Source: Nitrosopumilus sp.
GTDB lineage: Archaea; Thermoproteota; Nitrososphaeria; Nitrososphaerales; Nitrosopumilaceae
Assembly: GCA_965205675.1 (NCBI GenBank)
Contig: OZ242186.1
Location: forward strand, 864,001-928,000
Length of the DNA: 64,000 bases
Reading direction: 5' to 3'
In this document: positions 59,330 to 63,344 of the stretch, in pieces
How positions within the stretch are numbered: the first letter of the stretch is position 1
How the letters are laid out: each line of letters opens with the position of its first letter
Position numbers and translations under genes: made by a program
Notes under the pieces: model-generated
What the model was told of the DNA's origin: nothing
Databases searched by the model: none
Seen by the model: the letters and a program-made list of their open reading frames with translations, nothing else

Positions 59330-59429
59330 AACCTTTTATGATAATATTTAACATTTTCTAAATTATTACTTATAAGTATTGTGGTCTTCGGTTCTGTGTA
59401 ATCTTCGAGACCCAAAATATTGATCTTCT

Positions 59430-60697
59430 TCAGATTGAATTTTCCTTATGTAGACTAGCATTTTCAATGATAGTTTTCCACTTGTTCTTACCGTCAATCT
59501 CAATCATTGAGGCCTCTGCTGGTGTTCTACCCTTTAATGCCTCATGTTTCTTTGTGAAATTATAGTAGACCTTCATTCCCTCGATAAGTGGCGTGTCTAT
59601 TCTCTTTAATCCCCTGAATACCTTTTCTCTGTCTCTAATAGTTCCATTGATTCGCTCCATCTTGTTGTTGTTATCACGATCTCTTTTACCTGCAATGTGA
59701 ATATGCCTAACGTGGTTTGTCTTCTTTCTAAAAACTTTCTTTGAGGATTTCATATATGCCTGTAATCCATCAGTTATGAAATTTCTTGGAGATTTCCCAG
59801 CTTGTCTTTTGGTCAATTCTAGTAAATTATCCGTATTATGATGAAACTTGTTATCTGCCATGTCTGAAGCCAACCAATATCTAGTATCATCATCCATTGA
59901 GGCAAATAGATAACACTGTTCACCATTTACCTTAACCCATACCTCATCAGCACGAAACCAGTTTCCAACTCTTGGAACTATGCAATTAAGATAAACTGAT
60001 GTTAGTTTGGAATATTGAGTTATCCAGTTATAGATAGTCTTGAATGATACATCAACACCCAACATCTCATAATGATCTGCAATTTTTCTAACGGACATTC
60101 CTGAATAGTACATCTGTAATGCTCCAGTTATGGTATTTTCATTTGACTGTTTTTTCCCAAAACCAAAGTTAGCAGTAAACCTACGTTTGCAGTCCTTACA
60201 CTTGAAAACTTGAACATCACCAGATTTAGTCTTACGCATACCCTTTTTTATTATCTTACCTGAATCACAGTATTTACACAGAGCTAGTTTGGAACGCTCT
60301 AAAATCTTGAAAGTATTGTTTTTCCTACATTGATTATTCTTGATTACATCTAAGACTATTTTGATGTGTTTACAGTCTGCTTTTCGGACTTGATGGTCTT
60401 TGCACTTACATCTTAACCCATTATCAGTTCTTGATACAGTATAGACGTCTTGCGTAATTATTTCTAGGCGTGAATTTTGCTGCAGGATTTTTCAAATGAG
60501 TTGAGAAATTTGAATTTTCAGGTATGAATTCTGTTAAAATACAAAATTTGAGAAAAAATCGCTATAATTACGCAAGAGGTCTTATAACGATTTTTTGGAT
60601 TCGTTTGAGAACGAACACTAAAATTATTTGAATCTAGTTGAGAACAATATCCTTTTGTTTCCATAATTTGTTTGGCTCTTTGTATTCTTGCGTTCAT
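59430..60697 (-). pseudogene. IS6-family DDE transposase with N-terminal SWIM and Zn-ribbon domains, interrupted by a MITE
   Basis: ADEVWVKV, ITDG, NN.MER.N; removing the MITE and one TAT restores a 374-aa ORF from ATG 60697 with CKC..CKH and CKYC..CKDC. Confidence 0.88.
60443..60582. mobile_element. 140-bp MITE with element C TIRs, copy 2
   Basis: Same TIRs and body as 19269-19408; TAT duplication. Confidence 0.92.
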
Positions 60698-60748
60698 GTA
60701 TAAAACCCCTTGAAAAAATAAATAGAACCAAGTGGGAAAAAAAGTACG

Positions 60749-60820
60749 TGGCTCAGATTGTACGATCCAATTTCGTCATTTCCCATGACGGATAAGAGGG
60801 TCACGGCTTCATCATTGCCA
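60749..60820 (-). ncRNA. Candidate box C/D / K-turn RNA in the transposase leader
   Basis: Minus strand tggca-ATGATGA...ATGACGA...CTGA-gcca with a terminal stem, internal hairpins and a T7 tract just downstream. Confidence 0.55.
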
Positions 60821-60938
60821 ATCATTTTTACTTGATTCATATTCTATATTATCCGTATGCTTATTTAATGCTTACTATTAACCGTATGCAAAACTAAACG
60901 ATCGGTTAATATGTATCTATGATGATTAAAAATATAAG

Positions 60939-61112
60939 TTGACTCGTTGGAAAAAAGACGAAACAAATTTTTCTGTAAAACTCTCTGATGATGGTAGACA
61001 TAGTACGATTTGCAGAATACCCAAACCGATCTTAGAATTCCTAAATAACCCTAATTCAATCAAATTTATAATAGATGGAAAAAAAATCATGGTTAGTAAA
61101 GGGAACAAATAA
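60939..61112 (+). CDS. 57-aa AbrB-like small regulator (TTG start, not in ORF track)
   Basis: MTRWKKDETNFSVKLSDDGRHSTICRIPKPILEFLNNPNSIKFIIDGKKIMV; ends 3 bp before the MTase. Confidence 0.65.
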   Translation: MTRWKKDETNFSVKLSDDGRHSTICRIPKPILEFLNNPNSIKFIIDGKKIMVSKGNK

Positions 61113-61115
61113 GAA

Positions 61116-61820
61116 TTGAGTGTTTTTTCGTCTACAAGAACATTGACTACGCCAAAAGTAACATTACCCCCACGTCTAAAAATCAACAAGAAATTAAAAA
61201 TGGATGGATTGAAATTTCTTTCAAACATACCTGATGATAGTATACCAGTATCTTTTTTTGATCCTCAATATAGAGGAGTATACGAACAAATGAAATATGG
61301 TAATGAAGATACTTCAAGAAATCACAAGCGAGTTGAAATTCCTCAAATGAGTAATAATACAATCTCTGAATTTATCTCTGAAATTGCACGTGTGTTGATT
61401 CCATCGGGACATTTGTTTTTATGGTTGGACAAATTCCATTTATGTACGGATCATAGAGAATGGTTTGAATCTACGTGCCTCAACACTGTTGATATGATAA
61501 CATGGAACAAGAAAAAGATTGGATTGGGGTATCGTGCAAGACATACTAGTGAGTTTTTATTAGTTTTACAAAAAGAACCTAAAAGAGCTAAAGGATGTTG
61601 GACATTGAGAAATATTCCTGATGTGTGGGATGAGAAAATCCCCCCCCCCCAACACAAAAAATATCATCATACAAAACCAATAGATTTACAGACACGACTT
61701 ATCAGAGCTGTAACCAATGAATTTGACTTGGTTGTTGATCCAGCAGCAGGTTCATTTTCAGTTTTAGAGGCTTGTAATACTGCTAATCGAAACTTTTTGG
61801 GTTGTGATATTAGAAGATAA
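61116..61820 (+). CDS. N6-adenine/N4-cytosine DNA methyltransferase, beta class
   Basis: Motif IV FFDPQY precedes HxxxKP and motif I VVDPAAGS..GCDI. Confidence 0.9.
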   Translation: MSVFSSTRTLTTPKVTLPPRLKINKKLKMDGLKFLSNIPDDSIPVSFFDPQYRGVYEQMKYGNEDTSRNHKRVEIPQMSNNTISEFISEIARVLIPSGHLFLWLDKFHLCTDHREWFESTCLNTVDMITWNKKKIGLGYRARHTSEFLLVLQKEPKRAKGCWTLRNIPDVWDEKIPPPQHKKYHHTKPIDLQTRLIRAVTNEFDLVVDPAAGSFSVLEACNTANRNFLGCDIRR

Positions 61821-62493
61821 AATGGTCAAATTATCAGATACAAAAATAAAGAAATGTCAAGGTGAGGCATATTTCAGATGTTTTGGGAATCAACAGTTAG
61901 CGTCTCTTTTGAGTAGAACTCAGTCATTGGTGATAAAAAATGGTAATGACCTTGAAGATATGATTTTAAAAAGAGTGAACATCATAGACAATCTTGATAA
62001 ATACCTTGAAACAACAAACCATCAAGGAATATCAGTAGTGCCTAAGACAAGTATTAAAAAATCAAACATCATCAAGTTTGATGGTGTTGAACCTGATTTC
62101 ATGGTGTTTGTAGAAAAGGATAACAAAAAAGCATGTCATTTGATAGAACTAAAAGATGGATGTGAATTTGATACAAAATCATCAAGTGCAGAAAAAGAAC
62201 ATTTGTATGAATTTATCAGAAAAAACGCACAAAAAATGCAATATACGTTTGATGGCCATATTTGTTGTTTTAATAAAACATCTCGTGAGGAAATAGTAAA
62301 AGGATTCAAGAATAAGATCACAAAAGACGATGCCTTGACAGGTCGTGAATTTTGTGAATTGTTAGAAATTGATTATGATGATATTGTCAACACTCGTAAA
62401 AAAGACAGAGAATCCAATTTGGATTATTTTCTTAAGGTTGCAATTATTGATAAAGAATTACATCTAAAACTAACAAGTTTACTTGCAAGATAG
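61804..62493 (+). CDS. Putative type II restriction endonuclease (PD-(D/E)xK)
   Basis: EPDF...IELKDG; overlaps the end of the MTase. Confidence 0.75.
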   Translation: MILEDKMVKLSDTKIKKCQGEAYFRCFGNQQLASLLSRTQSLVIKNGNDLEDMILKRVNIIDNLDKYLETTNHQGISVVPKTSIKKSNIIKFDGVEPDFMVFVEKDNKKACHLIELKDGCEFDTKSSSAEKEHLYEFIRKNAQKMQYTFDGHICCFNKTSREEIVKGFKNKITKDDALTGREFCELLEIDYDDIVNTRKKDRESNLDYFLKVAIIDKELHLKLTSLLAR

Positions 62494-62576
62494 CCAAACA
62501 TAACGTCTTTCCCTCAATCTGAAGAAGATCAATATTTTGGGTCTCGAAGATTACACAGAACCTGGTCTTCGGATTC

Positions 62577-63344
62577 TGTTGTTGTATCCCAAAATCAGTT
62601 CGTCCCTTATTTGACATCGTATTCTTCTCCTGTCTGCTCATCAATAACTCTTGTTCCTTTCCCTGGCATCTTTCTTGCATATGCCTTTACAGGGGTCTCA
62701 AGATTATCCCAGTCAAGTGACATGTGTGGCTTTATGTGGTTGTACCAGTGGACCAGCTCATCAATGGTGCCAAACCATTTCTGCTTTCTCTGAATCTCGC
62801 CGTGAAATCTTTCGAGCTTGCCATTGGTTTGAGGATGGTTCACTCTTGCCATGATGTGTTTTATTCCAAGTCTAACCAGTTCTTGCTCAAACTGTGATGC
62901 TCCTTTTCTCTTGTATTCTGATTGGTTTGCATAAAATTGGGAGCCATGATCAGTTAGAATTGATGCAGGCCTACCGTGCTTTGCAATTGCCTCATGTAAT
63001 ACTACAAGTGCGTTATCTGTTGTTGCCTCTGCAAACACTCCATGAGAAACGATAAACCTTGATGCGTCATCCTGGTAACACAGAAACCATCTGCCATCGT
63101 CTAACTGCTTCCAGTCAGTATGCCACATGGAGTTTGAATATGTCCTTTCATATCTAACCCACTTTCGCCTTCTCCTCTTCTTTGGCTGATCTTCTGCCAA
63201 CCCCTCATCTCTCATAATTTTGTGTATGGTATTGTGAGGTATGTGTGTTCCAGTGGTATCAATTATTTTCTCCAGGAATACTGCAGAACACCTGAACTTT
63301 TCAAATGTAGACTGGACAGTCTGTACCATCTGCTCTGTAATTAT
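62577..63344 (-). mobile_element. IS481-family element, 3' part (ORF 62607-63329), interrupted by IS110
   Basis: TGT terminus at 62577; WHTDWK, DDASR, TDHGSQF, PQTNGKLERF. Confidence 0.88.

Follow-up and report, generated by a model that had tools for sequence, protein, structure and literature searches.

Small-RNA cassettes in Nitrosopumilus IS6-type transposons: a probably decayed box C/D unit between promoter and transposase start

Introduction

Is the box C/D-like motif in front of a transposase gene of Nitrosopumilus a genuine RNA element, and what would such an RNA be doing in the leader of a transposon gene? We addressed this question for a 64,000-nucleotide stretch of DNA (the window, corresponding to positions 864001-928000 of a single 2.01-Mb Nitrosopumilus contig). 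Coordinates are window positions unless the genome is stated. An earlier reading of the letters alone (the sequence-only reading) had described a kink-turn (K-turn) RNA, an upstream open reading frame (uORF) and a terminator stacked in the leader of an IS6-type transposase. When we re-read the sequence, every one of these features lay on the minus strand where that reading had placed it. Our preferred interpretation is that the window unit is a decayed member of a set of small-RNA cassettes that Nitrosopumilus transposons of the IS6 family of insertion sequences (IS) carry between the promoter and the transposase start, with an expression mechanism that we infer from the layout. On comparative grounds we give this interpretation a probability of roughly 0.6.

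Results

Sequence and geometry of the window unit

We recognize the unit as a 72-nucleotide (nt) K-turn RNA core of the box C/D type (60749..60820, minus strand, as are all the parts listed here) from its sequence, weak Rfam matches, conservation among paralogues and covariation of its stem. It opens with the 5' stem tggc (60820-60817), a single spacer nucleotide a (60816) and the C box AUGAUGA (60815-60809), continues through a C' box AUGACGA (60779-60773), and closes with the D box CUGA (60756-60753) and the 3' stem gcca (60752-60749). In a K-turn, tandem G.A pairs follow a bulge of 3 nt, and the stem tggc/gcca together with the 1-nt spacer and the RUGAUGA...CUGA boxes has exactly the spacing required. 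Five nucleotides (cgtac) beyond the 3' stem there is a run of seven T (60743-60737). Oligo-T stops archaeal RNA polymerase, and the run is a likely terminator or attenuator.

Complementary arms are present between the boxes: CCGTGAC/GTCATGG, preceded by ag, and ATTG/CAAT, preceded by a, with gaa ahead of ATGACGA. The sequence-only reading had taken them for two internal hairpins. We could not substantiate these hairpins, as the arms are not kept in the paralogues and the region as a whole folds no better than shuffled sequence (z +0.61; 140 of 200 shuffles fold as well). We defined strict K-turn geometry as RTGATGA and CTGA separated by 30-90 nt, with a 1-nt 5' spacer and a stem of 4 base pairs (bp) or more. 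The 2.01-Mb genome has 16 such matches, compared with 3, 3, 1 and 2 in four block-shuffled genomes. Six of the 16 matches are the window copy, three of its paralogues and two related small RNAs (sRNAs). Because the Rfam matches are weak, the fold shows no excess and shuffled genomes hold some strict matches, the motif by itself is only suggestive. The proteins that would assemble on such an RNA are encoded by the host genome: L7Ae, Nop5 and fibrillarin were all found above cut-off (293.9, 227.3 and 89.6 bits), and there are two L7Ae-family proteins; L7Ae is encoded at genome positions 218486-218758.

Conservation and covariation of stem and boxes

The leader has four further paralogues in the source genome, at about 424, 816, 1250 and 1284 kb (p424, p816, p1250 and p1284). 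All of them retain the pattern TGGC-N-(A/C)xGATGA...CTGA-GCCA, while their interiors vary in sequence and in length (69-92 nt). Over the 10 pairs that can be formed from the five source-genome copies, stem, spacer and C box are identical at 112 of 120 positions, and D box and stem at 80 of 80. Taken together, stem and boxes are identical at 192 of 200 positions, as against 263 of 677 (39%) for the interior; the upstream flank (22 nt) reaches 146/220 and the downstream flank (62 nt) 397/636. Families of C/D sRNAs are marked by just this pattern of kept boxes and a kept stem around an interior that is free to change. The transposase is gone downstream of p816, p1284 and p424, and p1250 is followed by a deleted transposase remnant.

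To these five copies an alignment of 13 units (A1) adds seven units from relatives and a sixth C/D sRNA of the source genome (own1336, at ~1336 kb), which is related to those at the relatives' loci L032 and L043. In the terminal 8-bp stem plus the K-turn G-C pair, 90.5% of the cells of A1 can pair, compared with 66.1% after shuffling (0 of 500 shuffles reach the observed value), and sliding the partner by 1-3 columns lowers pairing to 28-47%. Changes on both sides of the helix were found in all eight stem pairs (TGGC/GCCA, GGGC/GCCC, ATGC/GCAT and others), with a covariation score of 0.647 vs 0.220. RNAalifold, run unaided on A1, predicted the same 8-bp stem and nothing in the interior. All 13 units agree in the core G and A positions of the C box and, in the D box, in the C, G and A; for most of the remaining box positions conservation is 90% or higher.

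These comparisons show purifying selection on the terminal stem, the C box and the D box, and the stem covaries. The sequence-only reading had pointed to homologous transposase leaders as the place to look for conserved boxes and covarying stems; boxes and stem are indeed kept there, with covariation in 8/8 stem pairs. Its suggestion of a transposon-borne box C/D-type K-turn RNA is borne out by the geometry, the paralogue conservation, the stem covariation and the transposon ends described below.

One may still ask whether such a motif could arise by chance in an AT-rich leader, given that 1-3 such motifs are expected per genome and that the Rfam scores are weak. The conservation among paralogues, the covarying stem and the canonical sRNAs in the orthologous slot of related elements (next section) all speak against an accident, and we regard it as refuted as far as sequence comparison is able to refute it. 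The comparative evidence is, in our judgement, decisive that the box C/D unit is not a product of chance.

The RNA slot in related elements

Loci with transposase homologues were collected from the genomes of relatives, from 57 genome-contig loci and from 57 metagenome-contig loci. A recognizable N-terminal transposase match was present in 33 loci. From these we retained 27 upstream regions, in all of which the match begins at residue 1. We excluded L139, whose match starts at residue 2, and the duplicates L037, L039, L054 (identical to L033), L057 (identical to L032) and L060 (identical to L059). With the window this makes 28 distinct transposase upstream regions. Distant homologues (~30-40% identity, most of the metagenome loci) have no recognizable N-terminal match, and their upstream regions therefore lie outside this classification.

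Most upstream regions (18 of 28) carry no cassette, the transposase ATG standing directly behind a promoter-like region. In these basic regions a TATA-like box lies ~25 nt upstream between two copies of a short repeat, and several have a divergent small gene (ORF57, see below). A C/D-type unit is inserted between promoter and transposase start in eight of the 28: the window, L025, L032, L036, L043, L050, L052 and L055a. The remaining two (L049 and L058) have a transfer RNA (tRNA) with a long variable arm in the same slot (Rfam tRNA, 60.3 and 54.0 bits). The clearest cases are L032/L057 and L043, which contain textbook sRNAs of the form gggc-t-AUGAUGA-12 nt-CUGA-7 nt-AUGAUGA-12 nt-CUGA-gccc; these canonical sRNAs match Rfam sR1 with 26.9 and 26.2 bits. 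C' and D' boxes are both present in L032, L043 and own1336.

The boundaries of the cassette can be read from pairs of elements. For instance, L033 (no cassette) and L052 (cassette) have a common promoter up to ATGAAC; in L052 the cassette begins directly after this ATGAAC, and a second ATGAAC at the end of the cassette is the transposase start. The element at L061 spans 2,129 bp, its ends being 22 bp long and its 8-bp duplication perfect, and the RNA-bearing element at L050 spans 3,355 bp with a duplication matching at 7 of 8 bases. These ends and duplications place the slot inside the element. Behind the cassette, the transposase open reading frame (ORF) has 373-376 codons in L032, L043, L049, L050 and L052, and 464 codons in L055.

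Within the genus the canonical sRNA family has a sporadic distribution, occurring in 7 of 81 genomes including the source genome. It is also found away from transposases, at ~1336 kb in the source genome (genome positions 1336238-1336307) and in genomes G007, G070 and G082. Two of these genomes have tandem arrangements, with units of ~260 bp in G082 (L169/L171) and two adjacent genes in G070 (L167). The copy in G007 (L168) is syntenic with the 1336-kb copy of the source genome and has different guides. This sporadic, off-transposase and tandem distribution fits mobile, fast-changing guide genes.

Several further observations concern the slot and its contents. In L055 (2117-2500), the cassette and the N-terminus of the transposase are followed 270 nt on by a second N-terminal segment, all in one 464-codon frame, which is a tandem duplication of the 5' part. 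The slot tRNAs (L049 2257-2342 and L058 2246-2329) have long variable arms and the anticodons UAU and GAA. Besides its ordinary 75-nt tRNA-Phe, the source genome has three further calls of long-arm tRNA-Phe(GAA) (genome positions 1261574-1261656, 1794331-1794418 and 1858414-1858502), two of which have common flanks, as if part of another repeat. The syntenic sRNA copies of G007 and the source genome adjoin palindromes of the type TATCGCGTAATTACGCGATA.

Guide sequences and decay of the window unit

Compared with its canonical relatives, the window unit lacks part of the architecture of a guide RNA. Its D' box is missing: 12 nt behind the C box there is CUUA in place of xUGA, although the C' box AUGACGA is present. 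The spacers are 16 nt (C' to D) and 29 nt (C to C'), while those of the canonical relatives are 12 and 12. The stem has 4 bp, compared with 6-8 bp in three paralogues. The sequence-only reading had proposed a possible switch, with the two C-like boxes competing for a single D box. We found no support for it: ATGACGA stands at the canonical place of a C' box and, as we read the sequence, has no stem partner by the D box.

That reading had also suggested a search of the inter-box segments for targets. The 24 guides of the window copy, its paralogues and the relatives were compared with the 16S and 23S ribosomal RNAs (rRNAs) and 42 tRNAs, and no target emerged beyond chance. The best guide matches were equalled by 12 of 500, 29 of 300 and 30 of 300 shuffled guides; for the two window guides the figures were 203/300 and 30/300. 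Lacking a D' box and any recognized target, and with 16 nt between C' and D, the window unit is probably a decayed orphan guide whose guide function has been lost.

It could instead be an active 2'-O-methylation guide with an unrecognized target, such as a messenger RNA (mRNA), another mobile element or positions 44-55 of tRNA-Ala(UGC). The genes for the sRNA-protein particle are present, the 12-nt segment that follows the C box differs from p1284 at a single position (11 of 12 kept), and these same nucleotides, the first guide of the window unit, pair at 11 of 12 positions with GGGGUCACGGAU of tRNA-Ala(UGC). However, 30 of 300 shuffled guides do as well, the one substitution in p1284 would break the pairing, and both the absence of the D' box and the 16-nt spacer (12 nt in canonical units) argue against such a role. 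We therefore think an active guide quite unlikely.

A conserved open frame across the RNA

A 48-codon uORF (60694..60840, minus strand) bridges the leader, running from a promoter-proximal ATG through the RNA to a TGA on the transposase ATG: its stop codon (60696-60694) overlaps the transposase start (60697-60695) in the sequence ATGA (60697-60694). This frame has no stops, while the two alternative frames contain 5 and 3, and the probability of an open frame after shuffling is 0.049. The overlap of the uORF stop with the transposase start, described in the sequence-only reading, turned out to be a general property, kept in 10/10 testable RNA-bearing copies. The uORF is open in all nine RNA-bearing copies that have a promoter-proximal ATG, and p424 is the tenth. 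Among the nine, the TGA overlaps the transposase ATG in eight, and in L049 it stands directly before a GTG start. The other two frames in these nine copies have 1-9 stops, and the probability of an open frame is 0.017-0.137 per copy, before the 1-in-3 chance of the phase is counted. As the open frame occurs in about five lineages (the window family; L025/L052/L055/L036/L050; L032/L043; the two tRNAs), the joint probability of chance is remote. This comparison shows the open frame across the RNA, ending at the transposase start, to be conserved and selected.

What seems to be kept is the frame and not the peptide, since the phase of the uORF relative to the boxes differs between copies: it reads AAT GAT GAA in the window copy and L055a, and ATG ATG in L032, L052, L025 and p424. 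In L049 and L058 the uORFs traverse entire tRNA genes. A Shine-Dalgarno-like AGGGG (60706..60710, minus strand) lies 8 nt 5' of the transposase ATG, and the 3' end of the 16S rRNA reads GGATCACCTCCT. Similar motifs (GAGG or AGGG at -18..-4) were found in 9 of 10 RNA-bearing elements and in none of the 18 basic ones.

These data also bear on the idea that the functional entity is a small protein, the 48-residue product of the uORF. The ORF is open in all copies, and some of the differences among the window copy, p1284 and p816 are synonymous, so that the uORF may be under some coding constraint. Nevertheless, we found no Pfam family for the product even at E-values up to 5, the shift of phase relative to the C/D boxes makes the peptides of different cassette families non-homologous at the RNA, the ORFs also cross whole tRNA genes, and the covariation of the stem is an RNA signal. 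We consider a functional small protein very improbable. A separate candidate, in which the peptide would be an AbrB/MazE-like remnant (suggested by a VKxIGNSxAVTIP-like motif), was dropped: there is no Pfam match and the frames differ between families.

A possible expression mechanism

The layout suggests how cassettes and transposase might be expressed together. In basic elements the transposase mRNA would be leaderless, judging from the TATA spacing. In cassette-bearing elements the same promoter would transcribe the small RNA first. In the window element the T7 run would end most transcripts, leaving a precursor to be trimmed to a particle protected by L7Ae, Nop5 and fibrillarin. Transcripts that read through would be translated from the 5' AUG across the RNA, with ribosomes stopping at AUGA and restarting on the transposase; the uORF would thus serve as a translational bridge that keeps the transposase expressible. 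Assembly of the K-turn particle, or termination, would damp transposase expression. For the tRNA cassettes an analogous brake can be imagined in the form of cleavage by tRNA-processing enzymes.

A more ambitious version goes further. A dedicated slot behind the 5' AUG of an otherwise leaderless transposase mRNA would carry both C/D sRNAs and class II tRNAs within a bridging uORF; the transposon would spread and diversify guides, and assembly of the host ribonucleoprotein (RNP; L7Ae/Nop5/fibrillarin) or processing by RNase P/Z would gate the transposase. We put this version forward tentatively, as somewhat short of an even chance on the sequence comparisons given here.

Several findings weigh against the preferred interpretation, in which the window unit is a decayed member of the set of small-RNA cassettes. 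In the window copy the stem is limited to 4 bp, the D' box is absent, and C' and D lie 16 nt apart. An Rfam scan in E-value mode matched 60751-60819 (minus strand) to the archaeal C/D families sR44 with 17.2 bits and sR1 with 15.9 bits, well below the gathering threshold of 45. None of the 24 guides has a target above the chance level. The transposase is broken in three of nine RNA-bearing relatives (L025, L036 and L058), the synonymous differences among the window, p1284 and p816 uORFs hint at coding, and TATA spacing is the sole evidence for the transcription start. Finally, T runs of at least 5 directly behind the RNA were seen by eye in the window copy, p1250, p424, L032, L050 and L049 only, so that termination is not family-wide. 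The idea of the sequence-only reading that L7Ae or termination damps the transposase remains a reasonable inference, as L7Ae, Nop5 and fibrillarin are encoded, but its termination half applies to only some of the relatives.

An alternative is a purely cis-acting explanation, in which the K-turn is selected for binding L7Ae in the leader, as a roadblock or attenuator, and a stable sRNA acting in trans is not produced. Such an explanation would account for the orphan state of every guide, the freely varying interior and the position of the K-turn inside a coupled uORF, and translational repression by L7Ae bound to a K-turn is known (PMC5539422). It would leave unexplained why the K-turn blocks are 93-100% identical in p816, p1284 and p424, where the transposase is absent, and why all four boxes and spacers of exactly 12 nt are retained in the canonical relatives, although protein binding alone would not require them. 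The occurrence of the same sRNA family off transposases and in tandem arrays, as well as the tRNAs in the same slot, also argue against it. For these reasons we judge a cis-regulatory K-turn alone to be unlikely, though less so than an active guide.

Relation to known systems

The individual ingredients are known: C/D sRNAs in 5' untranslated regions (UTRs), MITE-like sRNA copies (MITE, miniature inverted-repeat transposable element), repression through L7Ae and K-turns, and ATGA coupling. In Sulfolobus acidocaldarius, L7Ae is autoregulated and represses translation through a K-turn in the 5' UTR or just behind the start codon (Daume et al. 2017, PMC5539422). A K-turn in the leader or behind the start that lowers translation on L7Ae binding is the mechanism proposed here, but those mRNA K-turns are minimal ones and not full C/D sRNAs, and neither transposases nor uORFs are connected with them in the available part of that article, where the string 'transpos' does not occur.

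For C/D sRNAs overlapping an ORF at its 5' end, co-transcription and mostly orphan guides have been described, 2 of 17 having targets (Lui et al. 2018, PMC6009581). The sense-overlapping sRNAs of their category 1 resemble the present units in their C/D boxes and terminal stem, in inferred co-transcription and in the predominance of orphan guides. As far as the accessible text goes, the two differ in that here the whole sRNA lies in a separate uORF coupled by ATGA to a mobile transposase; in the Pyrobaculum cases, unlike the window copy, the start codon falls within the C' box or the D guide. The same paper describes MITE-like C/D units of Pyrobaculum calidifontis, which likewise have conserved flanks, variable interiors and several copies per genome. 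Those units are described in the part available to us as non-autonomous and devoid of a transposase, whereas the present ones belong to another phylum-level lineage and sit in an autonomous IS6-type element that has inverted ends and a duplication of 8 bp. ATGA overlaps, for their part, have been linked to translational coupling (Huber et al. 2019, PMC6728339). Those gene pairs have a stop/start overlap and an upstream Shine-Dalgarno-like motif in common with our elements; going by the available portion of that study, they differ from ours, where the product of the upstream ORF is not conserved and the ORF surrounds the gene of a structured RNA.

A literature search found no paper joining a box sRNA with Nitrosopumilus, and a search on box sRNA, L7Ae, transposase and archaea returned nothing bearing on the present case. 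The available portions of thaumarchaeal and archaeal IS surveys mention no RNA cargo. In the literature searched we found no case of these features joined in one autonomous transposon of the IS6 type, where tRNAs can also serve as the cargo. The only archaeal precedent we found, in the accessible text of PMC6009581, consists of the non-autonomous MITE-like copies in one Pyrobaculum species. The finding of related transposons with C/D RNAs or tRNAs at the same spot suggests a route by which RNA genes move between genomes, and a C/D RNA in an autonomous transposon, with sRNAs and tRNAs in sister slots, would give the mobility of sRNAs a concrete vehicle that can be put to the test. The layout also suggests a new kind of transposase tuning, in which the gene of a structured RNA sits within a coupled uORF. 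The elements would be natural versions of the constructs with an L7Ae-bound K-turn in an ORF that are used in synthetic biology.

The host transposon and its surroundings

The unit lies in an IS6-type transposon of 3,173 bp (59390..62562, minus strand), identified by its inverted ends and target duplication. The inverted ends are perfect over 49 bp (59390-59438 and 62514-62562), each starting with GGTTCTGTGTAATC; the right end reads ...CACAGAACC at 59390. As both ends are flanked by the 8-bp duplication GAAGACCA (59382-59389 and 62563-62570), the mobile unit is 59390-62562. The 49-bp inverted ends take in the final 8 nt of the transposase gene. We also considered an internal left end (GGTTCTATTT at 60729), which would place the RNA outside a minimal IS. 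This candidate was rejected, as the alignment of the right end with the element's own region from -60 to the ATG scores at the shuffle mean in 9 of 9 elements.

The transposase gene is a pseudogene (59430..60697, minus strand, in the parts 60697-60584 and 60440-59430), assigned by its reading frames and by a DDE_Tnp_IS240 match (E 1.2e-13, 51.8 bits vs a cut-off of 27). It is split by a 139-bp MITE with 19-nt inverted ends (60444..60582), and the window transposase is dead, broken by this MITE. The MITE has 27 full-length copies in the source genome with 94-100% identity; its 19-nt inverted ends read AGACCTCTTGCGTAATTAT... and copies are flanked by short TA-rich duplications. The broken gene, the 3.2-kb transposon with its cargo, the missing D' box with its altered spacing and the tRNAs in sister slots had all escaped the sequence-only reading.

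With IS26 and IS257 the element has in common the DDE_Tnp_IS240 domain, ends starting GGTTCTG and an 8-bp duplication, which we take to be traits of the IS6 family. These classical members are ~0.8 kb long with one gene. The present elements differ from them in their length of 2.1-3.4 kb, a divergent small gene, cargo, what we read as a SWIM-like N-terminal extension, and the RNA slot.

The divergent gene, ORF57 (60939..61112, plus strand, 57 codons), is a small conserved partner of the transposase, and its homologues adjoin transposase homologues in nine further places, the same place being counted once. A profile search found no Pfam family for it; ORF57 is probably a regulator that binds the promoter repeats. 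The promoter region (60845..60889, minus strand), whose role is deduced from the direct repeat family and from the layout of relatives, has a TATA-like TTAAATAA (60868-60861) between direct repeats at 60876-60889 and 60847-60860 (TATTATCCGTATGC / TATTAACCGTATGC). Homologous repeat pairs surround the TATA-like box in relatives, and the repeats look like operator sites. The repeat sequences differ among relatives and the layout is common, as if each element had its own specific operator.

The cargo consists of a type II methyltransferase (61116-61820, plus strand; N6_N4_Mtase, E 1.5e-18; PADLOC MTase_II, 2e-80) and a type II restriction enzyme (61804-62493, plus strand; PADLOC REase_II, 2.3e-43). 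A second C/D-like match lies antisense within the restriction enzyme gene (61915-61989, minus strand; Rfam SNORD83, 27.7 bits with a gathering threshold of 35, E 0.036).

Just outside the left end of the transposon (62580-62700), the DNA is a repeat of very high copy number in public contigs: the summed word depth in X1 is ~54,000-161,000, compared with ~9 in the transposon interior, and the transposon seems to have landed in another repeat. Comparison with the public DNA contigs X1, X3 and X4 showed the DNA to be present there, together with high-copy repeats. To the left of the window there are two strict K-turn C/D candidates unrelated to the transposon family (genome positions 856995-857063, minus strand, and 841656-841717, plus strand). 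One has a 7-bp stem and D'/C'-like boxes and the other matches Rfam sR20 with 27.4 bits; these two may be host sRNA genes.

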